A DNA stretch of 64,000 nt from Planctomycetota bacterium (GCA_965223265.1 OZ244999.1:5280001-5344000), one strand, 5' to 3'. Shown: positions 5,049-29,500, numbered from the stretch's first letter. Made by a program: numbers and translations. The notes: generated by a model not told the origin, from the sequence alone.

Positions 5049-6434
5049 CTATCCTCCGACTAACGCCGTTTCTCTGCGCTCGGCTGCCTGCGGTGCTCGC
5101 GCTGTGCACCACATGTTCCAAGCGAGGAGTCCGACACCGATCAGGACCATGACTCCCGAAAGCGTCCGCACCCACCAGAACGGCACAGAGCTGACGACCG
5201 ACATTTCCCACGGCGCGAGTTCCTTCCAGCTGAATCCCTGAACGAGCCCGACACCGGTCAGCGCCATGAACATCACGACGAGCCCGATCGTGCACAGCCA
5301 GTACGCCCAATGATTCATCTGGTTGGAGTACCACTCGCGGTCGACGAGGCGCGGCCAGAGATGCACGATCGTGCCAAAGATCCAGAACGTGAAAACGCCG
5401 AACATCACGAGGTGAGCATGCGCCACCACCCAATCCGTGAAGTGGATAATCTTTTGCGCCGAGAGCGTCGTTTGATACGCGCACTGTAGACACGTAATGA
5501 AGTAGAGCACCATGCCGGTATAGAACCAACGAATCGGCAGGTTCGTTCTCAGCAGATCACCGCGGCCGAACAGTGTCGCGAAGAAGTTGACGATCACGGT
5601 CGTGACGACCACTTCGACGGCTATCGTCGCGACGACAGCGCCATACTGCGCATACATTGGAATCGGGCTGTAGAGGAAGTGATGCACCCCATTCAGTGGA
5701 TAGAAGAAAGCCAGGCCCCAGAAACCGATCAGCGAGAGCCCGTGACTATAAATCGGCTTCTTGATGATGATCGGCACGAAATAGTACATCAGCCCCCATC
5801 CCATTGGAGTCACGAACAGACCGACCAGGTCGTGAATGTAGAGACCCGCCAACGCAGCTCCCGAAGCACCGGGGATGAAATACTCTGGGAGGAAATTCCC
5901 CATGATGTATGTCAGTCCGGTCCAAACGAGCCCGGCGGAGATGTACCAGAGGGACACGTAAAGGGCTCTAGTCTCGCTGCGCGCAATCGGCGTGAAAAAC
6001 TGCGCCATGAGAAGGAGCGCACCGACGACGACGAAGGGATCAACCCACACTGGGGTCTCGCCCCATTCGAGCCCTTGGGCTTCACCAGCCAAGATCCCAA
6101 CAAAGGTGGCGGCGATGATCGCCTGCCAGACCCAGAAGATCAGCCAACCAAGACGATCGCTGAGAACCTGACGCGCCGTCATTCGTGGTACCGCCCAATA
6201 GAGCAGTCCGACGAACGAATTGACGAGGAAACCGAAAGCGATCAGGTTCGTGTGCACCATGCGCACTCTTCCCGGCGACAGCACCGAGATGCCTTCCGCC
6301 GGATAGTGCTGCAGGAACGAAAGCGAATAGAGGAATCCTCCAACGAGCGCAATCAGCAGGCTAGCCATGCCGGCGGCAAGATGTGCACGGACGAGGCCGC
6401 GATGAACGAGCTGAGAAGTCTCAGTTGTTTTCAC
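5049..6434 (-). CDS. ccoN: cbb3-type (C-family) heme-copper oxidase subunit I, divergent
   Basis: HTN, HDLVGL, FFYPLNGVHH and TDWVVAHAH ligand motifs; about 12 TM helices. GTG at 6434 overlaps the upstream stop (GTGA). Confidence 0.88.
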   Translation of the reverse strand: MKTTETSQLVHRGLVRAHLAAGMASLLIALVGGFLYSLSFLQHYPAEGISVLSPGRVRMVHTNLIAFGFLVNSFVGLLYWAVPRMTARQVLSDRLGWLIFWVWQAIIAATFVGILAGEAQGLEWGETPVWVDPFVVVGALLLMAQFFTPIARSETRALYVSLWYISAGLVWTGLTYIMGNFLPEYFIPGASGAALAGLYIHDLVGLFVTPMGWGLMYYFVPIIIKKPIYSHGLSLIGFWGLAFFYPLNGVHHFLYSPIPMYAQYGAVVATIAVEVVVTTVIVNFFATLFGRGDLLRTNLPIRWFYTGMVLYFITCLQCAYQTTLSAQKIIHFTDWVVAHAHLVMFGVFTFWIFGTIVHLWPRLVDREWYSNQMNHWAYWLCTIGLVVMFMALTGVGLVQGFSWKELAPWEMSVVSSVPFWWVRTLSGVMVLIGVGLLAWNMWCTARAPQAAERRETALVGG

Positions 6435-12611: not shown

Positions 12612-13823
12612 TCAGGGTTTCAGCCGTTCCATCACGCGGGCAAGGCGTTTCCGAACTTCCGGGGCCTGGTTAACCCGCAGCGGATTTTCCTCTTGCGGAT
12701 CGTTCTTCATGTCGTACAAGTCGCCGCTGCGGTAGAGCTTCCAATACTTGTCGCGAACCCACGCCCTGCCGTTCCATTCAGTGAACACCCACTCGCGCGG
12801 GTTGCCTCGTTCACCACGGAGCTGCCCTGCGAAGCTTCGGCCATCGATCACCAGGTCGCTGGGTAACTTCGCGCCGGCAAGGTCCGCCAACGTCGGCAGG
12901 AAATCCGTGAAGTCGATCAGATCGTCATTAGTTTCGTTGGCCGGCACGGTCCTCGGCCAGTTCGCGATCAGCGGAACACGGGTTCCGTTGTCGGTGAGCC
13001 GCGCTTTGCCGCCCCTGATCTTGCGGTCGCCGAGCAGCGACACCTCTGAGGTCGGTGATCCGTTGTCGGCGGTAAACAGAATCAGCGTGCGATCGCGCAG
13101 CTCGAGCCGATCGAGTGCCGCGACGAGCTTGCCGACCATTGCGTCCATGGAGGCCACCATCTCGCCGAACGTCAGGTGTCCGCGCCCTTCGGGCGCTGGC
13201 TCGTTCCGTTTGGGGTAGTGCGTCAGGCACATGGGGTAATAGGCGAGGAACGGTCGATCTCGGTTTTGCTCCATGAATTCAATCAGGAAGTCCGTGTAGA
13301 CATCCGGACCGTACCGATCTTTGACGCCGGCCATCATCTTCTCGTTGCGATAGATCATCGGCTGCCAATAGCGCGGCCCCTCGTGCCACGCCCAGACGGC
13401 ACTCGCCTGGAACCCGAAACGCTGCACTCGCTGCGGATCGTCGGCGATTCTTCCCAACTGCCACTTCCCTGCCAAGGCCGTCCTGTAGCCGACGCGTTGG
13501 AGCACGTGACCGAACGTGGTTGCGTTTTCGGGGATATGCCCCCACTTCATCGTGGTCCTCACCGTATACCGCCCTGTCAGAATCGTGACACGGGACGGAC
13601 TGCACTTGGGCGTGGAGAAGCAGTTGTCGAATCGCAGCCCGCTCTTGGCCAAGGCATCAAGATGCGGTGTGCGATACGAGCGCCCCCCGTAGGCTCCCAG
13701 ACACTCGTAGCCCAGGTCGTCGGCCATGATCAGAAGAACGTTGGCCCGTTCAGCGGCACGCACGACCGCGGTGATCGACAGTCCGACGCAGAGCGGCACA
13801 GCCAGAAGAAGGCGATTGAACAT
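12612..13823 (-). CDS. Sulfatase (formylglycine-dependent)
   Basis: NVLLIMADDLG, CSPSR, GKWQLG and TADNG motifs; signal peptide. Confidence 0.93.
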   Translation of the reverse strand: MFNRLLLAVPLCVGLSITAVVRAAERANVLLIMADDLGYECLGAYGGRSYRTPHLDALAKSGLRFDNCFSTPKCSPSRVTILTGRYTVRTTMKWGHIPENATTFGHVLQRVGYRTALAGKWQLGRIADDPQRVQRFGFQASAVWAWHEGPRYWQPMIYRNEKMMAGVKDRYGPDVYTDFLIEFMEQNRDRPFLAYYPMCLTHYPKRNEPAPEGRGHLTFGEMVASMDAMVGKLVAALDRLELRDRTLILFTADNGSPTSEVSLLGDRKIRGGKARLTDNGTRVPLIANWPRTVPANETNDDLIDFTDFLPTLADLAGAKLPSDLVIDGRSFAGQLRGERGNPREWVFTEWNGRAWVRDKYWKLYRSGDLYDMKNDPQEENPLRVNQAPEVRKRLARVMERLKP

Positions 13824-13878
13824 TCCAAGAGACTACTATCAGGCTGTGCGAGTGTCGAGTGGGTGCGGCGTAACGTTA

Positions 13879-13974
13879 CCTCGAGTTTGGCCATTTCGCG
13901 TCGAGCCCGTTCCCGTAAGGGTTCAACAAGACGACGGGTACCTCAAGAGTGGCCTCAAGCCCGGACTCAACGCG
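13879..13974 (+). repeat. Repeat family B, left end plus degenerate interior
   Basis: CCTCGAGTTTGGCCATTTCGCGTCGAGCC matches the ends at 24762 and 34745. Confidence 0.7.
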
Positions 13975-14020
13975 GTCCGGAAACGCTCGCGCAACGGTAC
14001 AAACCACCCGCGATGAAAAA

Positions 14021-14109
<89 letters not shown>

Positions 14110-14264
14110 GCACGTATTCTCAACTCGCCATCAAGTCGCGAATCACCAAATGACGTCTTGCGTTTCCTCTTCCACGTCGCCGCTGTGTTGCCGGAGGCGT
14201 TCCCTGCTGTCGACGCCATCACGCCTCGAGCGGTTCGCCATGGCTGCGGCTACAATCAAAACTT

Positions 14265-14354
14265 TGGCGGAGAGGCAGGGATTCGAACCCTGGGAATCCC
14301 AAAGGATTCACTGGTTTTCGAAACCAGCCCGTTCGGCCGCTCCGGCACCTCTCC
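14265..14354 (-). tRNA. tRNA-Ser(CGA)
   Basis: CTGGT-TTCGAAA-ACCAG anticodon arm, long variable arm, CCA end. Confidence 0.96.
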
Positions 14355-14371
14355 GCTCTTGTAACCGGCGT

Positions 14372-14400
14372 AACTTACAACTTTGCTCCATGCACATCCA
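14372..14400 (-). promoter_or_regulatory. Putative sigma70 promoter of tRNA-Ser(CGA)
   Basis: TGGATG-17bp-TAAGTT; the same layout is conserved upstream of tRNA-Ser(TGA). Confidence 0.6.
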
Positions 14401-14704
14401 CCCCAGAATGCGCAGGAAATCGTGGCCGGCTTCGAGCCACTCGCTGATTCAGCTCTGCGGGTGCTCCGGAAGTTTGGTGCGGGCGACGCAAGAAAGATCC
14501 AGAGCCTAGCCGAGGCGCAGGACGAGCGTACCGGCGCCCGGCGTGCGCCTCGCCACGCGCGAGCGGAAGGGCGGACGATGCTGCCCCAACGCGGAGTCTA
14601 TAGGACTCCCCATCACTCTTCCTCGCATCCAAGGGTTGCGAGGAAGAGTGGATATTCTTTGAATCTTCTTATTTCCTTCACATTCCCCGCGCGATGATGT
14701 CGGC

Positions 14705-15391
14705 ATGGCTCAAGAAACCGTACTCCTGATCGAAGACGAGCGCGACCTGATCGAAGTCGTCGAGTACAACCTGAAGCGCGAGGGTTTCCAAGTCATCAGC
14801 ACGACAAACGGCGAGAAGGGACTGGACCTCGCCAAGCAGAAGCGACCCGCCGTCGTTCTTCTGGACCTCATGCTTCCGGGCCTCGATGGCATCGAAGTCG
14901 CCAAGCGACTGCGCGCCGACCCCTTGACGCGCGACATCGCCATCATCATGCTCACCGCCAAGAGTGAGGAGAGCGACGTCGTGTTGGGGCTCGGCGTCGG
15001 CGCCGACGACTACGTCACCAAACCGTTTCGCGTCAAAGAGCTGATCGCTCGCATTCGAACCGTACTGCGACGCGGCCGCCTGCAAGACGACCTGCCGACA
15101 GGGGAGCGGATCGAACGCTCGGGCCTGGTGATCGACGGAGCCAAGTATGAAGTCACCCTCGATGGCGCTCCCGTCGCGATGACCTTGACCGAATTCAAGC
15201 TACTGTCGACGCTCGCCAGTGCTCCAGGGCGAGTGTTCCCACGCGACATGCTGCTGCAGAAGATGCAAGGTGACGTCTGGGTGGACGAGCGCAACATCGA
15301 TGTACACATTCGCTCGATCCGAAAGAAGCTCGGCAAAAGAAGTGATTTCATCGTCACCGTTCGCGGTGTAGGCTACAAATTCAAGGAATGA
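14705..15391 (+). CDS. OmpR/PhoB-family response regulator
   Basis: Receiver domain (EDE, LLDLMLP, TAK, KPF) plus winged helix (RNIDVHI, VRGVGY); PhoB-like. Confidence 0.92.
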   Translation: MAQETVLLIEDERDLIEVVEYNLKREGFQVISTTNGEKGLDLAKQKRPAVVLLDLMLPGLDGIEVAKRLRADPLTRDIAIIMLTAKSEESDVVLGLGVGADDYVTKPFRVKELIARIRTVLRRGRLQDDLPTGERIERSGLVIDGAKYEVTLDGAPVAMTLTEFKLLSTLASAPGRVFPRDMLLQKMQGDVWVDERNIDVHIRSIRKKLGKRSDFIVTVRGVGYKFKE

Positions 15392-15557
15392 TCTTCGCGC
15401 CGTCTTCTGCTTGTTGAGTTTGGCCCTCACGTTCGAACACGAACCATCGCATGCGACTGCCTCAAAGTTCGGCTGGCGGCCCGTTCGCTGTGCGGCCCGT
15501 TGACGCCACGATGCTGCAAGCGGGCGTCTCTAAGGCAGTGCGTCGTGACCTCCGCCT

Positions 15558-16889
15558 ATGCGTTTCCATTGGATCTACTATCTGCTCGCGCTGATTCCCA
15601 TCGGGTTAGCCGCCTTCGCCACTGGCTGGATAGGCTTCGCCTGCGGCGCCGTCTTGGCGCTACTGGGTGTGTACGGCATTCTGCGCTCAGTCGGTGTGCA
15701 GCTCACAGCGCTCGAACGAGCGACGAAAGTGATCGCCGCAGACCCGCCGGTCGGCGAGGCATCATCGCAGCTCGGTCGTGAGCGCCTACAGCTGTCCGGT
15801 AATCTCGACGGTGTCGCGTCGTCACTCGGCAAGCGCGTGCGGCGAATTCATGAGGACAAGCGAAGTGTAGAGGCCGTGTTGGCCGCTCTGCCCGAGGGTG
15901 TCGTCGTCCTGTATCCCAACGGCGAGATCACACTCATGAATCGTACGGCGAAAAACCTTCTCGGGTTCGACGCAGATCTCGTAGAAACGTCGAATGCACC
16001 GCTCCTGCGGATCCTTCGCGAACTTGCCGAAAAGGTGACGCAAAACGATGAACCTGCGACCTCGGAATTCAGCCATGAACATCGACGCGTCCACGTCACT
16101 GCGATGCCTCTGGAGGCGTTCCCAGGGATACTCCTCATCATCGACGACGTCACAGAGGTTCGTCAGCTCGAGACGATCCGTCGCGACTTCGTTGCGAACG
16201 TGTCGCACGAACTCAAGACCCCCCTGACGGCGATTCGCGCCTACGTCGAAACGCTCATCGACGGAGGCTTGGATGACACCGTCCACAATCGTCGCTTTTT
16301 GGAGAAGATCGATGCGAATGCGCGACGCCTGTCGCTTCTCCTGACCGACCTATTGACACTGTCACGGATCGAGTCCGGCAAGGCGATCGGCGAGCGAACT
16401 CAGGTCGACGTCTGCCGCACCTTGGCCGACTCCTACCAGCGACTCGCGACACTCGCAGAAGAAAAGCAAATCGAAGTCGAAGTCACGCTCCCCTCCGAAC
16501 CCCTCCATCTTCTCGGAGATGTCGAGGCGCTGCAGCAGATACTCGACAACCTCATCGCCAATGCCATCAAATACACCGAGCCGGAGGGACACGTCACGAT
16601 CGCCGCGGAGCACAAAGCCGATCGGATCATCATCGAGGTAGTCGATACGGGAATCGGCATCCCAGAGGACGACTTGCCGCGCATCTTTGAGCGCTTCTAC
16701 CGCGTCGACAAGGCTCGCTCGCGCGAGCAAGGAGGCACGGGCCTCGGTCTCTCCATCGTGAAACACTACACCCAAGCCCTAGACGGCGAAATCAAAGTCA
16801 CGAGCACTGTCGGCAAAGGGTCGAAGTTTTCGCTCGAGTTTCCCAGCGCCTTGAGATCGAGTCAAAGACCGGAGGTCGCAGCGCGATGA
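15558..16889 (+). CDS. PhoR-like sensor histidine kinase (PAS, HisKA, HATPase)
   Basis: RRDFVANVSHELKTPL, NLIANAIKY, DTGIGI and FERFYRVDKARSR..GGTGLGL motifs. Confidence 0.92.
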   Translation: MRFHWIYYLLALIPIGLAAFATGWIGFACGAVLALLGVYGILRSVGVQLTALERATKVIAADPPVGEASSQLGRERLQLSGNLDGVASSLGKRVRRIHEDKRSVEAVLAALPEGVVVLYPNGEITLMNRTAKNLLGFDADLVETSNAPLLRILRELAEKVTQNDEPATSEFSHEHRRVHVTAMPLEAFPGILLIIDDVTEVRQLETIRRDFVANVSHELKTPLTAIRAYVETLIDGGLDDTVHNRRFLEKIDANARRLSLLLTDLLTLSRIESGKAIGERTQVDVCRTLADSYQRLATLAEEKQIEVEVTLPSEPLHLLGDVEALQQILDNLIANAIKYTEPEGHVTIAAEHKADRIIIEVVDTGIGIPEDDLPRIFERFYRVDKARSREQGGTGLGLSIVKHYTQALDGEIKVTSTVGKGSKFSLEFPSALRSSQRPEVAAR

Positions 16890-17461: not shown

Positions 17462-18766
17462 CTACGGTAGCGGATCGTCGTTTGGATCGGTCGCGTCTCC
17501 GAGTTGGACAGTACCCGGAGGCGCAAGCAACTTGACGGTGCGAACTCTGCCTTCGTCGAGTTCGGCATCGGGTTCGTCGTCGGTATTCTGCGGCTGAACG
17601 CGCCACCAACGCTGCCATACCGCCTTGCTGCGCAGATGGGTTTGCCGAGTCAGTCGCTGAAGTGCGCGCGTCGCGTCGCGCTCCAGCTGAGCGTCATCGA
17701 GGAGTTGAATCAGAAAGGGAATCGCGCGTTCGTCGCCGTGGCGTGCTACGGCGAACATCGACGCACGTCGGATTTCCTTCTCTCGGCTATCGACGAGTTG
17801 CCGTAGGACGAAATCTTGAGCACTCTCGACGTCGCACCGACCGAGTGCGCCGATCACGGCAACTCGAACATTGATGCGACCGTCTGTCGAAAAAATATCG
17901 ATCAAGGCTCCCACGTCGCGCCCGCGTGCGAAGATTCCCAGCTGCGTGATGAGGACAGTCCGCAAGTCGAGAAGGCGGGAAGTTTCAGCGCGTCGCCGGA
18001 TGAGATCGCCGAGTTCCCGCGTGCGTCGTGGCTCAACGCGCCTGAGGGCGCGCAGCACCAGGTCAGAGTGCGCGCTTCTCGACACCACCAACCGAATCAG
18101 CCGATCCCATGTCTTGACATCGCCGCTCTTAGCTGCCGCGATGAACGCGGCGACCTGACCGTCGCGCCGCGCCACGTCCAGCAACACCTCCGCGGCTGCC
18201 CCATCATCGAAGGCGGCAAGAGCGTTTAGGATACTCGGTGGGCATGGCCTGACTCGCTGAGCCGCTTTCGTGAGAGCTGACAGCACGCCAGAGGTCGAAC
18301 CTGCCGCCCGTGTGGCGACGGGCGTGAGGATGTCAATGAGTTCAACGCGCTCTGTCGAACCGAGAGCGGTAAGCACCGCGGCAGCATCTTCTGCCGCAGT
18401 CTCTTCCAATTGCCTCAAGATCAGGTCCTGCTTGCCTTCGAGGCGAGCGCGCGCCGCCCGCAGCTCTCGGACCTCAAGCGGTGGTGGCTGCTCGTTCAGT
18501 TCGTCTTGACGGCGAAACGGCCAAGCCGCCTCGATCTGTCGGTCGACGGACGCCATCTGATCGAGCGAGGCGACCAGTTTCTTCAGCAGGGCAGGAGCCG
18601 CAGCGGCGTTCGCGGTGGACGACAGCCGCTCGCGCGCCACAGCAGGCACATGGGCGACCATCAGAAGGCATACAAGCACGATCCGACTCGGCGACCCAAG
18701 TCTCTGCAGGAGGTTCGGTAACTTCTTACGGCACACGTCAAGACCCTCGAGATGTCGCGGTTTCAC
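17462..18766 (-). CDS. HEAT-repeat protein, cassette copy 1
   Basis: HEAT-like helices (VRVAVIGALG, AIPFLIQLL); paralog of 21694-23013. Confidence 0.75.
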   Translation of the reverse strand: MKPRHLEGLDVCRKKLPNLLQRLGSPSRIVLVCLLMVAHVPAVARERLSSTANAAAAPALLKKLVASLDQMASVDRQIEAAWPFRRQDELNEQPPPLEVRELRAARARLEGKQDLILRQLEETAAEDAAAVLTALGSTERVELIDILTPVATRAAGSTSGVLSALTKAAQRVRPCPPSILNALAAFDDGAAAEVLLDVARRDGQVAAFIAAAKSGDVKTWDRLIRLVVSRSAHSDLVLRALRRVEPRRTRELGDLIRRRAETSRLLDLRTVLITQLGIFARGRDVGALIDIFSTDGRINVRVAVIGALGRCDVESAQDFVLRQLVDSREKEIRRASMFAVARHGDERAIPFLIQLLDDAQLERDATRALQRLTRQTHLRSKAVWQRWWRVQPQNTDDEPDAELDEGRVRTVKLLAPPGTVQLGDATDPNDDPLP

Positions 18767-18784
18767 TTGCCGACGGACCAGCGG

Positions 18785-20200
18785 TTAGAGGTCACGGCTG
18801 CCCACGACTTCCTTGCGCGATTCCGGCAGAAACGGCTCGATCAAGCCGCCAGGGGCAAAGAGCGCGTTCGAGTAGAACACCCGAAAATCGTCGTAAAACC
18901 GCATATTGATCGTCGCGCTATCTAGACTGACCTCACCGCCTGATTGAACGCTGTCTTCGCCCATGAGCGCACCGACGATGGTCGTACTCGACCCGGATGA
19001 CGACTCGATGTTCGGCGTCCAGCCAGCGACAAGGACGAGGCCGGTCCATTCAAAAGTTCCGTCGACGAACAGGTCGGCTCGAGTCGACGGAGTGTTGTCG
19101 GTATCAACGTTCGGATCATAGTCATCACGGATAAGCAGCACGCCGGTGCCTTTGAACGTTTGCCCGGCGGGCACACGCAGTCCTCCGGTGACGATCGTCA
19201 CACCTGGTGTGCTGAGGTCGCCGAACGTGCCACTGTGATCGCCGTCGCTCAGTAGCGTCGTGCCAGCAGCGCCGCTGAAGGTGTTCCAAATGTCGTGAGC
19301 GAACATCTGAACGTCGGGGATGGTCGAATCGACCGGGTAGGGATAGTCAGGTGAGGTCTGATCTGATGTGTCGAAGTAGCTACTTGTCGGCGGCGGCGTA
19401 ACGTTCACCGTCGGATCGTAACCTGTGCCGCCGGAATTCGTGAACCAGGCCTCCACATTGCGCTGCCCGATCGGGTTCTGCGAACCCCAAATCTTGTAGG
19501 GGTGCGGGTTCGAGGTTGCCGGCGTCGGAGAACCGCCGCTATAGAGGTAGTCGTACGGGTAGTCAAGCGCACTCGTTTGAAACGGTATCGAGCTGTCCTG
19601 CCATGAGGTTTCATCTCCAGAGGCAATCACTCCCCACGTACTCGGGTCTGAGGGGTCTGATCCACCGCTCCAGTCGAATCCCCCGAGTGGCTTTTGCACC
19701 CCGCCGTTACCAAAAAACAGAGGCGTTTCCGGGACAAACCTGCGCCCCTTGACCACCACCTCGACGCCTTGTACGAGGTAGCCACTTGGATCCCACGAAA
19801 CGTGTTCTGGCGAAACCGTGGAACCGCTCACCGTCGCAGCTACGGCAACCCGCCCCCAAGATCGAATCGTGTTGGTACGCGTCGTTGCGTCGAAAGTCGT
19901 GGTGTAAAAGTACTCGCCACCATCAAACGTCACCCAAGTCGCGTTCGCACCGCCGCCCGACTGGGGCGTGACGATGCCGGCTTGCTTGATGCGAACGAGG
20001 GCGTGCGCCGCACCCGACTCGGCGATCTGCCGGGCCGAGAACACCTCCAGCTGCGCCACCTGGGCGATGCTTTGCTCGCGTGTCATGTTGAGACTGACGA
20101 CTGACAGCATGAGTAGCCCGAGCGCCATCACGGCGACGAGAATCAGAGCCACACCATCGCGGCGATCGAGACAGCCAACGTGTCGTATGTCGTTTTGCAT
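18785..20200 (-). CDS. PilX/GspK-like large minor pilin, cassette copy 1
   Basis: RRDG|VALILV hydrophobic helix lacking Glu5, followed by ARQIAESG (PilX N-terminal motif). Confidence 0.78.
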   Translation of the reverse strand: MQNDIRHVGCLDRRDGVALILVAVMALGLLMLSVVSLNMTREQSIAQVAQLEVFSARQIAESGAAHALVRIKQAGIVTPQSGGGANATWVTFDGGEYFYTTTFDATTRTNTIRSWGRVAVAATVSGSTVSPEHVSWDPSGYLVQGVEVVVKGRRFVPETPLFFGNGGVQKPLGGFDWSGGSDPSDPSTWGVIASGDETSWQDSSIPFQTSALDYPYDYLYSGGSPTPATSNPHPYKIWGSQNPIGQRNVEAWFTNSGGTGYDPTVNVTPPPTSSYFDTSDQTSPDYPYPVDSTIPDVQMFAHDIWNTFSGAAGTTLLSDGDHSGTFGDLSTPGVTIVTGGLRVPAGQTFKGTGVLLIRDDYDPNVDTDNTPSTRADLFVDGTFEWTGLVLVAGWTPNIESSSGSSTTIVGALMGEDSVQSGGEVSLDSATINMRFYDDFRVFYSNALFAPGGLIEPFLPESRKEVVGSRDL

Positions 20201-20229
20201 GGTTCGTCCACCGAATTGTGTCGCTTCGG

Positions 20230-20772
20230 TCAGTCAGTCGTTTTAGTCACCAGGCGCCGCAGTGTCTGGGTACGCGTCGCGCCGCGGTCGTCGACGTACG
20301 TGAGCGTCAAGAGCACCGGGATGAGCTGGAGATCCTGGCCCTTGGAAGCGTTGCCAAGGTCGTCGCTCGCGTCGCCGTCAAAATTCAGGTCCTGAGGACC
20401 ACCAAAATCCGCTGGCACCGACGCTTCGTTCGCGAAGATGGAGACAGCGATCTGACCGCTGTTGAGATCATTCACGGCAAACGACTTGGCGTGGTAGCGA
20501 TCATACACTTCTGCGACTCCGACATTCAGAGTGCCGTCGTTCGGGTAGTTCGCACTGTCTTGAATATCCGCAACAAGACACCGCAGCGAGTTCAGGCCGC
20601 GGTACACTCTGAACGAGTCGCGGCGATGCTCGATCCCCCTGCCAAGGGTCATCGACACCGCAACGCTGAGGGCAACAAAGATGGCGATCGACATCGCCAT
20701 CTCGACGAGAGTCAACCCCTCGCATCTCGCTCTGACTTTTCGGCAACCAGACATCTGTTTGAAGTCCCTCAT
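20230..20772 (-). CDS. Type IV pilin-like protein (PilV-like), cassette copy 1
   Basis: G|LTLVEMAM class III signal with Glu5. Confidence 0.8.
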   Translation of the reverse strand: MRDFKQMSGCRKVRARCEGLTLVEMAMSIAIFVALSVAVSMTLGRGIEHRRDSFRVYRGLNSLRCLVADIQDSANYPNDGTLNVGVAEVYDRYHAKSFAVNDLNSGQIAVSIFANEASVPADFGGPQDLNFDGDASDDLGNASKGQDLQLIPVLLTLTYVDDRGATRTQTLRRLVTKTTD

Positions 20773-21461
20773 TGTCGGAGCGAGATACGTTCGGTCAGAA
20801 CGACATCGTCGTCAAAAACAAAGTCTCCGTCGGGCCCCATAGCGTTGAGGCGCAGAGTCACCGACAACAAGCGCCCAGTGGGAGCCGGCGTCACACTCAG
20901 CGTGAACATTTCCCCGCTACGCGGACGAAACTCAGCCGGTACGAGCAGTTCGACCGCGGGCACACCACCCGCTATGCTCACCTGCGTGTTATCGTCGATG
21001 GTTCCGAGGGTCCCGTCCGGACCGCTCGCCGCCGCGTGAATGGCATCGAGAGACGGTCCCCTGCCGACGATGATCCCTGCATTGGGGTTGTCGCCGCCGT
21101 CCGGGCCGTAGATGTAGACACGGGCGTTGTCGTCGTACGTCGCCTCGCCAGTCACAGCGTCGATCGAGGCCAAGAGCCGAAAGCGCACGGCATGGGAGTT
21201 CACACCACTGGTCGCCTTGAGAGGCGAGTAGCCCGCGTCCGAGGTCAGCGCCTGTGACCCAAGGCGGACGATGCGCTCCATCGCTCGCTGCGCTCGCATC
21301 GAGAGCACCGAGGCGATCTGGTTCTCAACGAACGCGCGCTGCGACCAAATCATCGCCGAGACAGCGCCGCCGATGAAGACGCCAAGAACGGCTAAACTGA
21401 CGGAAACTTCGATCAGGCTGAAGCCGCGCTGTCTGTCTGTGAGTCGATCGTTCTGGTCCAA
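20769..21461 (-). CDS. Type IV pilin-like protein (PilW/GspJ-like), cassette copy 1
   Basis: QRG|FSLIEV prepilin motif. Confidence 0.85.
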   Translation of the reverse strand: MDQNDRLTDRQRGFSLIEVSVSLAVLGVFIGGAVSAMIWSQRAFVENQIASVLSMRAQRAMERIVRLGSQALTSDAGYSPLKATSGVNSHAVRFRLLASIDAVTGEATYDDNARVYIYGPDGGDNPNAGIIVGRGPSLDAIHAAASGPDGTLGTIDDNTQVSIAGGVPAVELLVPAEFRPRSGEMFTLSVTPAPTGRLLSVTLRLNAMGPDGDFVFDDDVVLTERISLRQ

Positions 21462-21693
21462 GTGTCACTCTCCCATCGAACCCTGTATTAGGGCTTCCGC
21501 AAGAAGAGTGACATCTCTACGACGATTCGACGAATTGCCGGTTATCGGACTCGGTCAGTCCACCGATCGTGCGCCGCGTCCTCCACGCCCATACCGCCCC
21601 CACCCACGTACAGGCGATCGCGCATGGCCTTGAAGCGCTTCTCCTTTGAAACCATGGACGCGGTCCCCCGACGGCACTCACAGTCTCGACGAT

Positions 21694-23013
21694 TCAGTTC
21701 GATGGCTCAGTGGTATCCGGCACATCATTGACGATGTTATCGACGTTGGGGGCAAGGTCCGGGTCATCGATATCGGGGTCGTCGGCAACTCCGGCAGCCC
21801 CGGGCTGCACCCGCCACCAGCGAAGCCATGATGCTTTTCCGGGCCCTAGAGCCTGCCCAGTAACGCGCTTGAGTGCCGCTTGTGCGGCGCGGCTGACCTG
21901 AGGAACATCGAGATAGTCGATGAGGAGCGGAACAGCCGCAGAGTCCATTGTCGAGCCCAAGGCGTGGACGAGCGCAAGTCTGAGGTCGTCAGTGCGAGCG
22001 CGGGACAGTTGATCGATGAGAAACGCGATCTCGAGCGACCCGAGTCGCCCCAACGCTCCCGCGCAAGCGGCCTTCACGATCGTTCGCTCCGAGCGAACGA
22101 AAAAATCCTTGAAGAAGGCGGCCCGGCCACCGTTGACGAACAGCCCCAATTGCGTCACTAGCGCGGCGCGCACACGATCTGAGGAGACGGTTGCAATGTG
22201 AGATTCAAGAGCGCTCTCCAGAGACGCTGTACGCTGCGGCTCAATCCTTTCGATGGCACTCATCGCCAAAGAAGCGTCACGCCCGCCGGAGTCAGCAAGG
22301 GCGACGAGCCGTGCCCAAACGGCAGCGTCACCGGTGCGCCCGGCTGCGACGAGGCATGAGAGGCTGCGGTCTCGGAGACCGACATCGAAGAGGAGCAACC
22401 CTGCCGGCTCGGTCCCCACTGAAGTGAGACTCTTGACCAGCACCGGTGGGCACGGCGCGAGACTCTCCGCAAGGCCGGCGAGCGCTTCAAACGCTCGCGG
22501 GTCTTTCTTGGCGGCCGTCGCAACGATCGGCAGGATCGCCTCGACGAGAGCGAAATCACCGTCGGCGCGGGCCGTCCTCAAGAGAACGGTCGCGTCGAGT
22601 TCACTCTCGACAGCAATTCTTCCAACGATTGCGTCACGCTGCGCCTCGAGACGTACACTCTTGGCCTCCAACTCGACGACCGCAGCAGGTGGCGGCCGCT
22701 CATTCGCCAGATCCTCCTCCTGAGTCGGCCAGATGTCCTCTTGCTTCTTGCGCATCGCGGCCAGTTGACTCAACACGCCGCGCAGTTCGCCGAGAGACGA
22801 TGCCACTTTCGCGTTCGCCCACATTCTTTCTGGTGCCGCAGCCCGCACCTCGGGCTCGAGCCCATCATTGGCCAATATCAATGGCGCGTGGGTCGCCGCG
22901 AAAAGGATCGTCACCGCCAGTCGCCGCCGCCAAGCATCGTCGCGGATGCATACATTCGTCGTCACGGGAAATCGCTCTAGAGTCAACTCACACCTCGCAC
23001 CAAAGCCGAACAC
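21694..23013 (-). CDS. HEAT-repeat protein, cassette copy 2
   Basis: Shares WP...NE.PPP..V.EL and W.RWWRVQP with copy 1. Confidence 0.75.
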   Translation of the reverse strand: MFGFGARCELTLERFPVTTNVCIRDDAWRRRLAVTILFAATHAPLILANDGLEPEVRAAAPERMWANAKVASSLGELRGVLSQLAAMRKKQEDIWPTQEEDLANERPPPAAVVELEAKSVRLEAQRDAIVGRIAVESELDATVLLRTARADGDFALVEAILPIVATAAKKDPRAFEALAGLAESLAPCPPVLVKSLTSVGTEPAGLLLFDVGLRDRSLSCLVAAGRTGDAAVWARLVALADSGGRDASLAMSAIERIEPQRTASLESALESHIATVSSDRVRAALVTQLGLFVNGGRAAFFKDFFVRSERTIVKAACAGALGRLGSLEIAFLIDQLSRARTDDLRLALVHALGSTMDSAAVPLLIDYLDVPQVSRAAQAALKRVTGQALGPGKASWLRWWRVQPGAAGVADDPDIDDPDLAPNVDNIVNDVPDTTEPSN

Positions 23014-23090
23014 CTCGAGTGAGGCGTCCGGAAAACTCGGTTGCAGAGCAAAGGATGACGATATCGCGCCTGCCCGCGATCCGACCAGCG

Positions 23091-24497
23091 TCAGATCTTA
23101 CGACTACCGACCACCTCCTTCTTCACTCCTGGAAGAAACGGATGAATGATCCCACCCGAAGTGAACAAACTGTTGGAATAGAGAACACGGAATTGGTCGC
23201 GCAACTTCATGATGATCGTGGCGCTATCGAGGCTGATCTCGCCTCCGGACTGAACACTGTCCTCGCCGAAGAGCGCTCCGACGATGGTCGAGCTGGATCC
23301 ATTCTGGGTTTCGATCGTCGGCGCCCATCCCGCGATCACCACCAAACCGGTCCACTCAAGATTTCCACTGATGTTGACGTACGCCTTCCGATTCGGTCGA
23401 TTGTTGGTGTCGACGTTCGGATCGTAGTCGTCTCGAATGACAAGGATTCCGGCACCGCGAAACGTCTGGCCCGCCGGCACGAGAAGACTTCCCGTTACGA
23501 ACGTCACTCCCGGGTCGCTGAGATCGCCATACGTACCGCTGTGATTGCCGCTCGTGAGCAAAGTGGCGTCTGGATCGTCGTGGTACGTGTTCCAGAGTTC
23601 ATGGGCGAACGTCTGAACGTCAGGAATCTCTGGATCGATCGGGTATGGGTAGTCAGGAGAAAGGTTGTCGCTCGTATCAAAGTAGCTGCTTGTCGGCGGC
23701 GGGCTCAGGTTGACGGTCGGGTCGTTCCCGGCGCCGGCCGAATTCTGAAACCATGACTCGATGTTGTGCTGACCGATGAGGTTCTGCGACGCCCAAAGCT
23801 TGAAAGGATGTGGGTTCGACGTCGCGGGAACCGGCGTTCCTCCGTTGGTCAAAAAATCGACGGGATGGTCGAGTGCGCTCGCCTCGAACGGAATCGATGA
23901 CGTTTGCCACGAGGAAGGGTTCGAAGTCACACTTCCCCATGTGGACGGGTCGTTTGGGTCCGCCCCGCCGGTCCAAGCAAAACCTCCAAGCGGCCGCTCG
24001 ATACCACCGTTGCCGAAAAAGAGGGGGGTTTCCGGAATGAACTTCCTCGCCTTAACAACGAGTTCGACGCCTTGGACTAGATATCCGCTCGGATCCCACG
24101 CCGGATCGTCTGGAGCCACAGTGCTGCCACTCACCACCGCGTCGGCCGCGACGCGCCCCCACGAGCGAATGGTGCTCGTCTGATTGGGCGCGTCGAAGAG
24201 CGTGTAGTAAAGAAACTCACCGTTTGAGAAACCGAGCCAGCTTGGGTCCGTTCCAGAGCCCGAAAACGGCGCCACTACTCCTGCTTCCTTGATCCGTGCG
24301 AGAGCCTGCGCGGCACCTGACTCCGCGATCATGCGCGCCGAAAAAGCCTCGCGCTGCACCACCTGCGTGACGCGATGCTCTCGCGTCATGTCCAGGCTCA
24401 CCACCGAGAGCACCAAGAAACCCAGCGCGGTCACCAACACCAAAATCAGTGTGACCCCGGCCTGCGGTCGGAGTTCTTCTTTCCTTACGCGATGCAT
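23091..24497 (-). CDS. PilX/GspK-like large minor pilin, cassette copy 2
   Basis: ATG at 24497 with a GGAGGT SD; G|VTLILV; ARMIAESG. The track's extension to 24674 runs into a repeat. Confidence 0.8.
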   Translation of the reverse strand: MHRVRKEELRPQAGVTLILVLVTALGFLVLSVVSLDMTREHRVTQVVQREAFSARMIAESGAAQALARIKEAGVVAPFSGSGTDPSWLGFSNGEFLYYTLFDAPNQTSTIRSWGRVAADAVVSGSTVAPDDPAWDPSGYLVQGVELVVKARKFIPETPLFFGNGGIERPLGGFAWTGGADPNDPSTWGSVTSNPSSWQTSSIPFEASALDHPVDFLTNGGTPVPATSNPHPFKLWASQNLIGQHNIESWFQNSAGAGNDPTVNLSPPPTSSYFDTSDNLSPDYPYPIDPEIPDVQTFAHELWNTYHDDPDATLLTSGNHSGTYGDLSDPGVTFVTGSLLVPAGQTFRGAGILVIRDDYDPNVDTNNRPNRKAYVNISGNLEWTGLVVIAGWAPTIETQNGSSSTIVGALFGEDSVQSGGEISLDSATIIMKLRDQFRVLYSNSLFTSGGIIHPFLPGVKKEVVGSRKI

Positions 24498-24580
24498 CGG
24501 GCACCTCCGTAGCGCCGTACGAGCCGGCGGGGGGTTTGCAATGAAACAAAAGAGAACAGCGTCTCCGCGCTCGCCCATAG

Positions 24581-24757
24581 CAGCCTGTTGAAAGAGTGCT
24601 TCGAGTCGAAAACTGGTCGCTTCGCGTCCAGATCGGCCGCGGCGAACGTAGGTAATCTCCGAGCCCTCTTCCATGAGACATAACGGCGAGGCTCGCCGCG
24701 GTCGATCTGGGCGTGAAGAGGCCAGTTTCTCGGCCGAATGACTTTTTCAACGGGCTG
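24581..24757 (+). mobile_element. Repeat family A, full copy (MITE-like hairpin)
   Basis: CAGCC...GGCTG ends, long inverted arms, flanked by ATAG and TTAG. Confidence 0.88.
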
Positions 24758-24761
24758 TTAG

Positions 24762-25015
24762 CTCGAGTTTGGCCATTTCGCGTCGAGCCTGGGAACGCCA
24801 GGAGCGTCGAGGCCAAGGAGCGACGACAACGCGATCCTGCTGCGATCGTGGCGGAGGAGCGACGCAGGCATCGGCGCTCCTGGCGTTCCCCGAAGGGCCG
24901 GACAGGAGTTTTTGAACATGCACAAGGGTTCTCAGGGTACGAAAAAGTCGAAAGGGCCTTCGAATTCCCGCGAAACTCGTCCGGCCAGGCCGGCGCGAAA
25001 TGGCCAAACTCGAGG
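24762..25015 (+). mobile_element. Repeat family B, full copy (MITE-like)
   Basis: Perfect TIR CTCGAGTTTGGCCATTTCGCG/CGCGAAATGGCCAAACTCGAG, flanked by TTAG and CTAG, with two internal hairpins. Confidence 0.85.
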
Positions 25016-25042
25016 CTAGGCGATTCAAGATCCAATGCTCAC

Positions 25043-25606
25043 TCAGTCTGTCGTTCTCGCGATCAACCGATAGGCGACAACGGACTGCGAAAACCCGGCG
25101 TCGTCGTACGTCAAGGTGAGACTCAGAGGCACCAGCCGAAGATCAGTGCCGTTCGACTGGTTGCCGAGATCGTCGTCTGCATCGCCATCGTAGTTGAGGT
25201 CTTGGGGGCCGCCGAGCTCGACGGGAACGGCTTGCTCGTTGGCAAAACAAGCGAGCGCAACCGACGCCGCCGACAATCCTGGGACAGTCAGTGTCTGTCC
25301 GTGATAGCGACCATAAACCTCGGCGATGCCCTCTTGAAGTGTTGCGTTGTGTGGTAAGTTCGCGACCTCCTGGATTTCGGCTACGACGTCGCGAATCGCG
25401 CTGACAGCACGATAGGCTTGGAACGAGCTACGGCGGTGCTCGATGCCTCGCCCGAGTGTCATCGACACGGAAAGGACCACGGCGAGAAAGACGCCGGCGG
25501 AGACGACGATCTCGAGAAGCGCCAACCCCGCGAATGATCGCGATCGAATCGACAGCTGTAAGTCTCTTGCGGACGATCTCATCGACATACTTGCCTCGCT
25601 TTTCAC
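25043..25606 (-). CDS. Type IV pilin-like protein (PilV-like), cassette copy 2
   Basis: G|LALLEIVV; shares TLGRGIEHRR, GGPQDLN.DGDA.DDLGN and the terminal TTD with copy 1. Confidence 0.8.
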   Translation of the reverse strand: MKSEASMSMRSSARDLQLSIRSRSFAGLALLEIVVSAGVFLAVVLSVSMTLGRGIEHRRSSFQAYRAVSAIRDVVAEIQEVANLPHNATLQEGIAEVYGRYHGQTLTVPGLSAASVALACFANEQAVPVELGGPQDLNYDGDADDDLGNQSNGTDLRLVPLSLTLTYDDAGFSQSVVAYRLIARTTD

Positions 25607-26286
25607 TGTCTGAGCGCCACGCGTTCGGTCAACACGATGTCGTCCTCGAGCAGAAAGACGCCGTCGACCCCCCGGGCGTTGAGACGAATCGTCAGCTCGA
25701 TCAATCGACCGGTCGGCGGTGGCGTGACGTCAATGCTGAGCATGGCCCCAACGCGTGGCGCGAAATCGCTCGGCACGAGAAGCTCTACCGCTGGCACGCC
25801 GCTGGAAAGGACAACTCGCGTGTCGTCGTCGGTCGTCCCGAGCAGGCCGTCCGACCCGGCGGCCGCAGCGTGAATGCTGTCAAGCGTTGGACCACGCCCG
25901 ATGAGAATGCCGCTGCTTGGGTTCGACCCCGAATCACTGCCGTAGACATACACGCGTCCGACGTCGTCGAATACGGGTTCTCCGGTGACGACATCGACGG
26001 ACTGCACCAGTCGAAATCGAAGCGCGTGAGAGTCGACGCCGGTCGCCGGCTTGAGCGGCGTGTAGGCCAGGTCGGAGGTGACCGCCTGGCTCGCGAGGTC
26101 GACAATCCGCTCGAGCGCTTTTTGGGCGCGAAGCGCCAGGACGGACGTCATCTGACTTTGCGCCATAGCGCGCTGCGTCGAGATGAGCGCCGTGACAGCC
26201 GTCGCCGTGAACACACCTAGGACGCTCAGACTGATGACCGATTCGAGAAGCGTCAGTCCTCGGAGGCGCGAGTCGCGAGATCTCAT
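25603..26286 (-). CDS. Type IV pilin-like protein (PilW/GspJ-like), cassette copy 2
   Basis: RG|LTLLES; paralog of 20769-21461, both ending in LTER..LRQ. Confidence 0.82.
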   Translation of the reverse strand: MRSRDSRLRGLTLLESVISLSVLGVFTATAVTALISTQRAMAQSQMTSVLALRAQKALERIVDLASQAVTSDLAYTPLKPATGVDSHALRFRLVQSVDVVTGEPVFDDVGRVYVYGSDSGSNPSSGILIGRGPTLDSIHAAAAGSDGLLGTTDDDTRVVLSSGVPAVELLVPSDFAPRVGAMLSIDVTPPPTGRLIELTIRLNARGVDGVFLLEDDIVLTERVALRQ

Positions 26287-26559: not shown

Positions 26560-29500
26560 CTACCCATCGGCGGAGCAGATGGCGTGGCTCAAGCACGGGA
26601 CGCTGTCTGGCGTCGCGTCGGTCGCGCAACGCCCGAAGGGCTCAGCGAGCGGCCCTGCCCCGGCATAAAGGTGAAGCAGCAACCGAATCGGATCCGCCAG
26701 GTCGACGATCCCATCGTCGTCGACATCAGCGCTCTTCCAACACTCAGTCGCTGGGGCGCCGCGAAAGAGCTGGCCGACGAGGTCGATCGCGTCGCTCAAG
26801 TTGAGCTCACCATCTGAATTCACATCGCCGCGAATGAACCGCGTGTCATCGCCATTCGACTCGACGAGCTCGCCGGTCAACGAGACTCCGTTGAGCGAAC
26901 CAAGAATCTGAAAATCGTCGCCGAGATAATTCACCGCCGCCGCAATACCGAGGTCCGGTTCGCCGGAGACAATCTCGACCACGTGAACTGGCTCCGAGAG
27001 GCTCTCCAGAGACACCGGAGGATCCAGTACGGCCCAGTACCGCACGTCTCGGTTGTGTCGTATGGCGCCGTAGACGAGATCCCAGTAGCGAATCACCTGC
27101 CGCTTGCGGTCGCCACCGAAGTCAAGATCTGCGAACACTAGGCTTGCCGGGCCAGTGGCTGTCGGATCGGTTGGCGGCTCAAAACGCTGCAGTAGCCGAA
27201 AATGCTCGCCGGATGCGGCGGACACGTCGACTTGCCACAGCGGCAATGTTTGATAGGTACACGAGGAGTAGCGCGCCACGAGGCCACGATCGCCTTCGAG
27301 CGCCAGACTCCGAGTCAGAAACTCTTCGTCGAATCGAAGCGGCGAATCAAGACTCTGTTCGCCACGCGCGCGGAACTCCAAGTTCTGGAGGCGCAACGTG
27401 TACAGCTCACCGTTCGGCAAGCGAAAATCCTGTTCGAAGCGAAAGAGGTAGCGAACGGCGTCTCCCTGTGGAATCGCAGACCAGCGAAACATCCCGGGAC
27501 CATCAGGAATCGCCAGTCCCTCCTCATAACCGACTCGCACGTCGGCAAAAAGCTCCCCGAAAAACGCGTCAGTCTCAGTGGGCAAAGCGTGGATGCCACT
27601 GGCGAACTCGACGCGGCTCTTGAGTCGCAGCGATTCTTGCGGGCTGCGCGAGTGGACGAACACCCCGCAGCTGACCGTGCCGGGCGGAATGTCGAGCTCA
27701 AAGGTCGGAGCCGGTGGCACAGAACTGCTGCGAAGGAACGGTCGAACCTGCTTCACGGCAAGGTCTCCGTTCGACTCGATCTTGAATTCGATGTCGAGAA
27801 GAACCTGACGGCGTGGATAGTCGCCGAGAGTGACCGGAAAGTCGCGATCGATGTGCCACAGCAGAGCACCTATCTCGCGTAGCTGCGCGTCGCTCAACAC
27901 CGTCTCGCCAGCGGCAACGAGCGTCGAGGGCAGCGCGCGAAAGATTTCGACGACGACGCCATCCTCGACGCGGAGAAGATTCTTCTCGGCGACGACGCCA
28001 GGTTCGGGACTCACGACACTCTCTTCGCCGACTTGCCCAGTGACGATGTAGCGGTTGTCGAGTGGTTGATCAGGATTGCCTGTGAACGCAACCCCGTTGG
28101 CGCTCTCGTCGAGGAACGCCCGACTGACGAGGAGTCCCATGGCGGTGCTCGCCTGCGGCATGCCGAAAAAGGCGCGCTCTTCGTAGGCACGAAAGTTCCA
28201 GTTACTCGCCCAAACCTTCTTCAGGGCGCGCACGATCGTGCGCTCGTTTTTCTTCGTCGGGTCGCAGAGCGACGGCCCCGACGAGTCACCGTCGAAGTCA
28301 TCGAGGACGCAGACCGACGTCGAATCGTAAAGCCCAGCGCCGTTGAACTCGAGCGCGTCCTCAGCATTCGAAGAAGAACGGAATCGGACGACCGTATCGC
28401 GCGACCCGAAAACCGACTCAATCCGCGAAGCCAGCGCAGAGACAAGTTCCGCGTCGACGGCACCATTTTCGCGCATGTGATCTCGCAGCTGCTTCAACAC
28501 GGTGAATCGCAGCTGCGAATCGCTCTCAAACTCCGGCCACGCGATGACTTCGTCGATGTACTCGTCGTAGGTCAAAAGAACAGCTGCATCCCGAGCCGAC
28601 GGAATCTGGCCCGTCCGCAGAAACTGCAAGTAGTAGTGCACCGGAATCGCGAAGCCAACCTCACGGTATTGCCCCAGCGGCCCGTCAAGAATCGCCTGGA
28701 GGCGCGCAAGGTTGCTCGCCTTGCCGCCAAAGCGGCTCTCGAGCAGCGCGCCGTCCATGTGGTTAGCGATCTCCTCGAGCCGGTCAAGCCCTTGATAGTC
28801 GGGATCGATCTCCGGCAGGACGGAGAGTTCAGGGCGGCTTTCTGCCCACCACGCTTCAGCCTCCGCGACAGTCGCGGCGTCGACGTTGAAGTCGTCGGCG
28901 CGCACCTCGAATCGGACGAGCTCGCCGTCGTGTGGACCGAAGGCTCGCGCCGCTTCGCGCACGAATGCGTTCGGGGTGCCGCGGCGGGCCGTACGCACAG
29001 CTATGTGGCTCAAGTCGCTCTGCGGCTCCGCTGTGACGACGCCGCCGACAACACCTTCGATGTCGCGCGGCGCGTGGTCGAGAACCAGGATGTCTTGAAA
29101 ACTGATACTTCCCGACGCATTGGCCGCCTCAAAGCTTGCACGCGTGTGAACACGGACCCGGCCGAATCCTACGCCTTGCGTGTAGGCTTGGAACGTCACC
29201 TCGGGACGCTCGGACTCAAAGTAGACAAAACTGGTGTCCGGCCAGGTAGCAGCGTGATCGCGTGTGATCCGGGCGTCAGGATAGTACTTGAGCGGCCTCA
29301 ACGTGACGGCTTCCAACATCTGCTGATGAATCGCCGTCACTTCCTCGAAAGTCGGGAGCTCACGGGGATCGGCGTCAAAGTTCGTCAGGACGTTGTAGCC
29401 GTAGAGCGGTCCTGTAGGAGTCGCCAACAAAAAAACGGCGCCACTGAAATAACGTCGGGTCGCGCGATCACCGACAAGTTGACTGTAGAACTCGACCGCG

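Follow-up and report, generated by a model that had tools for sequence, protein, structure and literature searches.

In the type IVa pilus (T4aP) systems of Pseudomonas aeruginosa (fimU-pilVWXY1E) and Myxococcus xanthus, the minor pilins that prime and cap the fibre are encoded together; M. xanthus has several alternative clusters, with one of which is encoded TfcP, a non-pilin periplasmic accessory protein (PMC7541494, PMC8833165, accessible portions of both reports). Cyanobacteria possess FimT-PilW-PilV-PilX core sets in which a solenoid PilX has been put forward as substitute for the PilY1 cap; a genome has several alternative sets, which rely on shared machinery to prime different filaments, and Com-type sets with a solenoid PilX are required for transformation (Schuergers et al., PLoS Genet 2026, PMC13759059, accessible portion of the article). 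In the ComZ protein of Thermus thermophilus, the solenoid most resembles the ice-binding protein FfIBP, and the stalk GspK; ComZ binds DNA through lysines, and a protein of this kind has been argued to be able to sit only at the fibre tip (PMC6561018, accessible portion). The present analysis concerns a 64,000-nucleotide stretch from the genome of a Planctomycetota bacterium (GCA_965223265.1, OZ244999.1:5280001-5344000; hereafter "the window") which carries two consecutive copies of a four-gene cassette, W-V-X-HEAT. We read this cassette, with a probability of roughly 0.6, as a type IV filament's self-contained set of minor pilins, served by machinery encoded elsewhere in the genome, in which X would form the cap and the HEAT-repeat protein would be optional. 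Such a design has precedents in Thermus and cyanobacteria; only the HEAT partner is new. Planctomycetota display conspicuous surface fibres. Our literature search found no description of minor pilins or fibre tips from this phylum, and no account joining a HEAT-repeat protein with minor pilins, a pilus tip or PilX.

The eight genes lie on the minus strand, in two consecutive runs of the same order between positions 17462 and 26352 of the window (listing of open reading frames, ORFs; sizes in amino acids, aa):

25603-26286, minus strand: W2, putative PilW/GspJ-class prepilin of the upstream cassette, 227 aa from the ATG at 26286
25043-25606, minus strand: V2, small prepilin-type protein of the upstream cassette, 187-aa ORF
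24565-25020, strand not assigned: dispersed repeat of ~455 bp between V2 and X2 (blastn against the genome itself)
23091-24497, minus strand: X2, putative tip pilin of the upstream cassette, without Glu5 and with a predicted beta-solenoid head, 468 aa from the Met at 24497
21694-23013, minus strand: HEAT2, putatively exported HEAT-repeat protein of the upstream cassette, 439 aa
20769-21461, minus strand: W1, putative PilW/GspJ-class prepilin of the downstream cassette, 230 aa
20230-20772, minus strand: V1, small prepilin-type protein of the downstream cassette, 180 aa
18785-20200, minus strand: X1, putative tip pilin of the downstream cassette, without Glu5, 471 aa
17462-18766, minus strand: HEAT1, putatively exported HEAT-repeat protein of the downstream cassette, 434 aa

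In both cassettes the stop codon of W and the start of V overlap by 4 bases, and the remaining intergenic gaps measure 18-77 bases, V2-X2 excepted: where V1 and X1 are 29 bases apart, the upstream cassette holds the dispersed repeat. Comparison of the eight proteins with the whole 9.18-Mb single-contig genome by tblastn gave identities of 60.2% over 221 aa for W1/W2, 51.8% over 170 aa for V1/V2, 66.4% over 461 aa for X1/X2 and 32.7% over 379 aa for HEAT1/HEAT2. Four gene pairs in identical order with such identities rule out chance. Thus, the duplicated four-gene cassette proposed in a preliminary description of this DNA is confirmed by eight genes in two runs with pair identities of 33-66%, and the sizes proposed there, about 470 aa for X and about 435 aa for HEAT, agree with those listed above. 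The same search detected no further full-length paralogue of any cassette protein in the whole genome; the sole additional match was a weak V-like one (25%) at C1:8614611-8615030. The regions upstream of the two cassettes share no recognisable similarity. A promoter scan returned 0 promoter-like sites, and a terminator scan returned nothing usable (12 terminator-like sites against 8.5 +/- 3.4 in shuffled sequences).

Two of the starts call for comment. The W2 frame is open to 26352, where a TTG offers an alternative start. The longest ORF covering X2 extends from 23091 to 24674 (527 aa), with its first ~32 codons inside the dispersed repeat. Since the repeat overlaps the 5' end, the 527-aa frame is a false extension; homology places the start at the Met of position 24497. 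Similarity to X1 begins at residue 68 of the longer frame (tblastn), and a 468-aa entry from the same genome is in the database (P0002).

W and V carry prepilin-type N-termini. W1 exceeds the Pfam cut-off for the N_methyl family (31.5 against 21.2 bits). A class III signal, as defined by a brief basic leader, Gly at -1, Glu at +5 and a hydrophobic helix, is readable in W1, W2, V1 and V2, although W2 and V1 stay below the cut-off and V2 is unmatched. W2 reads R-G/LTLLE followed by a hydrophobic helix, V1 G/LTLVE and V2 G/LALLE; in 19 related loci the orthologues show G/F[TS]L[IL]E for W and G/[LF]SLVE for V. An AlphaFold2 model of W1 built from 21 sequences (predicted local distance difference test score, pLDDT, 89.7) has the pilin fold, a long N-terminal helix on an antiparallel sheet, together with a two-sheet globular domain of the GspJ/PilW type. 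Its eight best matches in the PDB were with TTHA1219, XcpW, EpsJ and GspJ (Z 7.5-9.5). TTHA1219 came first (Z 9.5; root-mean-square deviation, rmsd, 3.6 over 130 residues), and the next match after these eight was with an unrelated protein (Z 5.6). As all eight are PilW/GspJ proteins, the prepilin motif and the modelled fold together place W in the PilW/GspJ class of minor pilins. TTHA1219 is also the protein which cyanobacterial PilW is said to resemble in the accessible portion of PMC13759059, and the matches with GspJ, XcpW and EpsJ (Z 7.5-9.0) are shared with the GspK-GspI-GspJ tip of type II secretion systems (T2SS; PDB 3CI0, 5VTM). Searching the PDB by sequence alone with the profiles of W and V gave weak matches, confined to pilin N-terminal helices, and the profiles of the Verru_Chthon cassette (NCBIfam TIGR02599 and partners) matched only the N-terminus of W2, at 12.4 bits against a cut-off of 256.5.

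V resembles the small prepilins of the PilV/GspI type in motif, size and position. Pfam N_methyl matched 16 of the 21 V-family members at E<=0.1, and the nearest Atlas clusters consist of Planctomycetota proteins, 40-46% of which have N_methyl. Both V and W contain a loop that is invariant in 21 sequences: D-L-N-x-D-G-D in V (D-L-N-F-D-G-D within V1 residues 128-137) and G-x-D-G-x-L-G-T-x-D-D in W (W1 residues 147-157). We take the resemblance of these Asp-rich loops to calcium-binding sites as a guess.

X is the largest of the three pilins. Its orthologues start with R-x-x-G/[SA]AL[IV]L, in which position 5 is not acidic, and continue into a hydrophobic helix. Absence of Glu5, already remarked upon in the preliminary description, holds for both window copies and for the orthologues with a readable N-terminus, and is shared with PilX and GspK. 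Neither X1 nor X2 matched any Pfam family at E<=0.1, PilX_N (PF14341) and T2SSK (PF03934) included, and PilX_N was matched by only 2 of 44 members of the X family (best E 0.0014). The nearest Atlas clusters are PilX-like proteins from other phyla, of which 21-26% have PilX_N; these frequencies suggest that X is distantly related to PilX_N proteins.

The fold of X1 was modelled with AlphaFold2 from 44 sequences (pLDDT 87.3; predicted template modelling score 0.81). The model comprises a helix (residues 14-72), a small sheet up to ~153, a beta-solenoid at ~154-450 and a last strand at 462-470; DSSP gives the same order, with strands at 90-153 before the solenoid and the final strand after it, and the pilin alignments cover residues 48..471. 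In the model the helix and sheet form a pilin domain, and the solenoid on it is triangular, like that of ice-binding proteins. Foldseek ranked ComZ of T. thermophilus first (6qvi; E 1.3e-5, probability 0.97). In VIA comparisons, residues 154-450 matched ice-binding-protein solenoids (Z 10-11.2, rmsd 3.1-3.4 over 166-182 residues), residues ~17-153 matched the pseudopilins EpsI and XcpV (Z 6.5-7.0), and whole X1 matched ComZ with Z 8.9 over 276 residues and an rmsd of 13.4, high because the orientation of the domains differs. The model thus assigns X to the PilX/GspK/ComZ class of tip subunits, with a pilin stalk and a predicted solenoid head. Like ComZ-PilA2 (PDB 6QVI; PMC6561018, accessible portion), X would pair a pilin-like stalk with a large triangular solenoid, lacks the canonical prepilin Glu5 and is encoded beside small minor pilins. 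The neighbours themselves differ, W and V with or without HEAT in one case and pilA1-pilA4 in Thermus, and no HEAT partner is described for ComZ in that portion of the report. Sequence identity with ComZ is only 11-13%, and X is very acidic, unlike the lysine-based DNA binder: net charge is -26 for X1 and -19 for X2, 20 of the 21 family members computed are net negative, and in the X1 solenoid Asp+Glu total 35 and Lys+Arg 10. Such acidity argues against a role as DNA receptor. With the T2SS tip, X shares a stalk matching EpsI/XcpV and the position of largest subunit without Glu5. It differs from GspK in having no T2SSK domain and, in the model, a beta-solenoid in place of the helical insertion.

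X homologues were present in 8 of 400 other Planctomycetota genomes sampled. A large protein collection contained 80 relatives at E<=1e-5; all those with a named source came from Planctomycetes/Planctomycetota, and were annotated as "hypothetical" or, twice, as "PilX N-terminal domain-containing". A scan of public data at one genome per species yielded 21 loci in 18 metagenome-assembled genomes (MAGs), all Planctomycetota, whose genes were scored by iterated profiles on stop-to-stop frames. The order W-V-X is kept in 19 of the 20 informative loci, L051 being uninformative as it starts inside X. In the exception, the decayed locus L042 (3543-4922), no W or V lies upstream of X, and the X frame is interrupted by a stop codon at 3912-3914; yet the locus has a complete HEAT gene downstream, at 5065-6270. 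All-against-all clustering of the flanks of the 21 loci identified only two conserved families besides W-V-X, namely HEAT and, in 4 loci, a small membrane protein; no FimT/FimU-type gene is conserved beside the cassette. Machinery and conserved neighbours are so scarce across the 21 loci that W-V-X is a stand-alone module throughout its range.

In a quick maximum-likelihood tree of X (IQ-TREE), X1 and X2 are sisters (Shimodaira-Hasegawa-like approximate likelihood-ratio support, SH-aLRT, 97). Being each other's closest relatives, they point to a lineage-specific duplication of the whole cassette rather than to an ancient pair of types. Duplication recurs elsewhere: X genes occur in tandem in L041, two unlinked copies in the MAG of L040 and L049, and two copies in the MAG of L045, L051 and L052. 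In this respect the two sets of the window, recent sister paralogues, differ from the cyanobacterial ones, which represent a deep Com/EPS split; the cassette also has three pilins against four in the cyanobacterial sets and, unlike those, is followed in about half of its loci by a gene for a putatively exported HEAT protein (comparison with the accessible portion of PMC13759059).

The HEAT gene lies directly 3' of X in 8 of the 17 loci informative for it: L034, L036, L042, L043 (where it is cut by the contig end), L048, L050, L053 and L054. Four loci end too early to be scored and were left out of the 17. HEAT1 scores 39.1 bits with Pfam HEAT_2, above the cut-off of 27.7, and HEAT2 27.4 bits, just below it; in Pfam the two proteins match HEAT families only, and the PilY1 domain PF05567 is unmatched. 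A signal-peptide-like N-terminus was found in HEAT1 and in every orthologue read, and the proteins share the motifs A-W-P...E..PP near the N-terminus and W-x-R-W-W-R near the C-terminus. Word-based searches with HEAT1 and with the HEAT alignment retrieved only HEAT1 itself, one known orthologue and generic HEAT proteins. In an exhaustive profile search, the best 150 matches included ~33 full-length, single-stretch representatives of 343-575 aa, the remainder being giant multi-HEAT proteins; altogether 59267 proteins match the profile at E<=0.001, through its generic HEAT part. As judged from these sequences, HEAT constitutes a real but fast-evolving family. Presence in 8 of 17 loci makes it an accessory rather than an obligate part. 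HEAT is scattered on the X tree: parsimony requires six changes, at least two of them forced by well-supported branches, and 155 of 500 shuffles fit as well. The most distant clade (34-36% X identity) also has HEAT after X, which suggests an old linkage with repeated loss.

Complex prediction with X1 residues 44-471 and HEAT1 residues 46-400 gave a score of 0.67 (runs 0.37, 0.67 and 0.69), while all three controls, the best one included, scored 0.00. The runs share at least 46% of their contacts, and the pLDDT of the partner is at least 84. Loops 195-205, 224-234 and 259-274 of the X head, together with a few other positions, are predicted to contact HEAT residues 89-367. The contact residues of HEAT are periodically spaced, a pattern to be anticipated from an alpha-solenoid with its concave face around the X loops. 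The model supports binding between X1 and HEAT1 but does not show it. We take HEAT to be an optional, though frequent, companion that probably partners with the X head.

No ATPase, platform protein, secretin or major pilin gene was found in the window, either by Pfam on its 35 other ORFs or by genome-wide family searches. A strict scan for class III signals returned 41 candidates genome-wide, of which only W1, V1, W2 and V2 lie in the window. The cassette also differs from T2SS operons in that it is not beside gspG, gspH, ATPase, platform or secretin genes. The rest of the genome encodes seven GspE/PilB-like ATPases, plus PilT-like ones and a CpaF-like one, two prepilin peptidases (Peptidase_A24), platform proteins and nine secretins. 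Four T2SS-like clusters, near 2.22, 2.44, 6.84 and 7.10 Mb, have their own pseudopilins directly after GspF, and one of them includes a Pfam GspK; the T2SSK genes of the genome are at C1:7100197 and C1:9123499. The PilD-PilT-PilB-PilC cluster at ~3.66 Mb and a cluster at ~6.56 Mb have no pilin gene within 20 kb, and genes resembling major pilins (137-154 aa) are scattered through the genome, among them those at C1:2362430, 2556007, 5011283, 5788509 and 7929184. The picture is one of shared machines with several alternative minor-pilin sets. Our favoured candidate for the machine that would use the cassette is the PilD-PilT-PilB-PilC cluster near 3.66 Mb. At least two more multi-pilin sets occur outside the window, at C1:5367349-5370556 and C1:3271968-3281714; five class-III-signal genes of 186-436 aa follow one another in one of them, and the other has four such genes, two of which encode proteins of 408 and 420 aa. 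The same machines may use these as alternative minor-pilin sets.

We postulate that W, V and X are anchored in the inner membrane through their N-terminal helices and that W and V are presumably cut by prepilin peptidase. A complex of the three would prime fibre assembly and end at the tip, where the acidic solenoid head of X would act as the cap and a probable adhesin in a fibre devoid of PilY1. HEAT would be exported through Sec to the periplasm, its concave face being predicted to wrap the surface loops of the X head, and would function as an optional stabiliser, chaperone or tip-associated adaptor rather than as an obligate subunit. Tandem duplication in this lineage would then have provided two variant tips. 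The preliminary description had likewise seen in the cassette a minor-pilin set that primes fibre tips, and the prepilin motifs, the PilW/GspJ fold of the W1 model, the ComZ-like X1 model and the gene order in 19 of 20 loci bear this out; its proposal that an oversized X serves as adhesin fits the arguments made for ComZ (PMC6561018) and for cyanobacterial PilX (PMC13759059) in the accessible portions of these papers. It was also right that the window itself holds no assembly machinery, as seen in the Pfam, family and signal searches, and the type IV pilus and T2SS cores that it proposed to look for elsewhere in the genome are present. This reading extends the PilY1-free tip with a solenoid PilX beyond Thermus and cyanobacteria, and defines a compact three-pilin core whose X has no Pfam family, with an exported HEAT protein as candidate accessory predicted to hold the cap.

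A number of observations weigh against this reading. On the side of the pilins, W2 and V1 score below the N_methyl cut-off of 21.2 bits (17.7 and 17.1, respectively), V2 has no Pfam match to this family, and the pilin fold and class of V are assumed from its sequence features. The cassette contains neither a FimU/GspH-type fourth minor pilin nor a major pilin, and the repeat inserted between V2 and X2 could break up the upstream operon or disturb its expression. Of the 21 loci (283,970 bases in all), L038 alone has core machinery at a distance of up to 9 kb, in the form of a secretin-like stretch. The cassette being so rarely near machinery, its link to any machine is purely one that we infer. 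A whole-genome search for the PilY1 domain PF05567 gave no match, and neither did control genomes, so that absence of PilY1 is not established by it. With regard to HEAT, the gene is absent from 9 of the 17 loci despite at least 1.9 kb of room (L035, L038, L041, L044-L047, L049 and L051). In all five of the five genomes with a HEAT-less locus that were searched with the profile, only generic matches of 26-51 bits appeared; generic matches start at profile position 119 or later, whereas the linked full-length orthologues score 340-454 bits. A mark of 0.67 was attained by 116 of 157 solved complexes as against 2 of 215 pairs that were mismatched; these counts apply only roughly to X1-HEAT1 since custom alignments were used. 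Finally, neither partner shows preferential conservation at the predicted interface: identity at the X interface reaches 0.38 where the locus has HEAT and 0.34 where it lacks it, against 0.55 and 0.58, respectively, in the rest of the solenoid, and identity at the HEAT interface is 0.298 against 0.289 elsewhere (permutation p 0.40). The earlier suggestions concerning HEAT must therefore be restricted. Linkage to X in other genomes is real in 8 of 17 loci but not universal; occupation of a PilY1 slot agrees with the predicted binding to X1 but not with the 9 loci and the 5 of 5 genomes in which no orthologue was found, so that HEAT is optional and fills no obligate PilY1 slot. In the published analogues it is the solenoid itself that has been proposed for the PilY1 cap role (accessible portions of the cited papers). 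PilY1 of T4aP is a beta-propeller, unlike the alpha-solenoid HEAT, and Pfam detects no PilY1 homologue in the cassette. TfcP, a cytochrome c, is unrelated to HEAT but sets a precedent for a non-pilin accessory (PMC8833165, accessible portion).

The same structural matches could be accommodated by a pseudopilus tip of the T2SS type, with HEAT as a dedicated cargo that docks on the X head in the periplasm before being pushed out by way of a secretin. W resembles XcpW, EpsJ and GspJ as well as TTHA1219, the X stalk resembles EpsI and XcpV, the genome offers four T2SS-like clusters and nine secretins, and HEAT is putatively exported and predicted to bind the X head. However, the T2SS-like clusters are equipped with their own pseudopilins, including the Pfam GspK of one cluster, X lacks T2SSK and has its closest whole-protein match in a type IV competence-pilus protein, and a protein missing from 9 of 17 loci makes a poor dedicated cargo; we regard this explanation as quite unlikely. 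That ComZ is the best whole-protein structural match could in turn indicate a competence-pilus tip akin to ComZ-PilA2, in which X would be a DNA receptor, and the cyanobacterial Com-type solenoid-PilX sets needed for transformation offer a parallel (PMC13759059, accessible portion). This we hold to be highly improbable: X is strongly acidic while DNA binding by ComZ uses lysines (PMC6561018, accessible portion), sequence identity is only 11-13%, and likeness of fold does not establish likeness of function.

The role of HEAT allows two readings which depart from the postulated module in opposite directions. It could simply travel with the operon as a conserved passenger, serve some unrelated purpose in the periplasm and owe its predicted contact with X to a modelling artefact. 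It is dispensable in about half of the lineages, the interface residues are no better conserved on X or on HEAT than other residues, and the W-x-R-W-W-R region falls within the generic HEAT part of the profile. Nevertheless, the gene comes directly after X, in the same orientation, in both window copies and 8 public loci, at X identities of 34-66%, the flanks contain no other conserved family save the small membrane protein in 4 loci, and the controls all scored 0.00 against 0.67; a mere passenger thus seems unlikely. Conversely, HEAT might be a new type of non-pilin cap partner that clamps the variable X loops in the periplasm and travels to the tip as an exchangeable adaptor, the divergence of the HEAT copies (33% against 66% for X) reflecting two binding specificities for one machine. 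We consider this unlikely. If HEAT does bind, it would provide a simple two-protein system in which to study the stabilisation of tip heads or their acquisition of new specificities, and would explain why bacteria keep several alternative tip sets. The postulated module, with HEAT as its optional component, remains the preferred reading.

The nearest neighbour of the upstream cassette is the following gene:

26560-31944, minus strand: FG-GAP/dikinase protein of 1794 aa with 12 FG-GAP repeats, PPDK_N and a dockerin-like C-terminus (Pfam)

This protein had been put forward as tip cargo or secreted substrate, an idea that fails on distribution: it is unlinked in 21 of 21 related loci, none of which has the FG-GAP and PPDK_N parts. 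Only its dockerin-like C-terminal domain of ~90 aa recurs, with 9 matches in the 283,970 bases of the loci. About 271-272 matches are present in the 9.18-Mb genome, from which ~8 are expected in the loci. The domain is therefore found in the loci at its genome-wide density, which gives no evidence for a cargo link; it may be a sorting or anchoring tag typical of the phylum. It has two D-x-N-x-D-G loops and conserved Cys, and several of the genes that precede the cassette in L044 and L047 terminate with it.

Some minor features of the loci may be recorded. The core of the dispersed repeat (24570-24765) has ~270-420 blastn matches in the genome and the rest of it ~55-90; more copies lie in the window near 8912, 49600 and 62800 (tblastn). 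The secretin-like stretch of L038 is at 3566-4141, ~3.6 kb upstream of W, and on the downstream side of X, at a distance of ~2.5 kb, the same locus contains a frame of 1027 aa whose N-terminus is PilX-like (12853-15933). The small membrane protein that adjoins the cassette in 4 of the 21 loci, and not in the window, has ~160-230 aa and an R-K-x-I-x-P-x-L-Q-L N-terminus; it is encoded at 199-852 of L034 and 11633-12319 of L048 on the minus strand, and at 10293-10892 of L044 and 7155-7715 of L047 on the plus strand.

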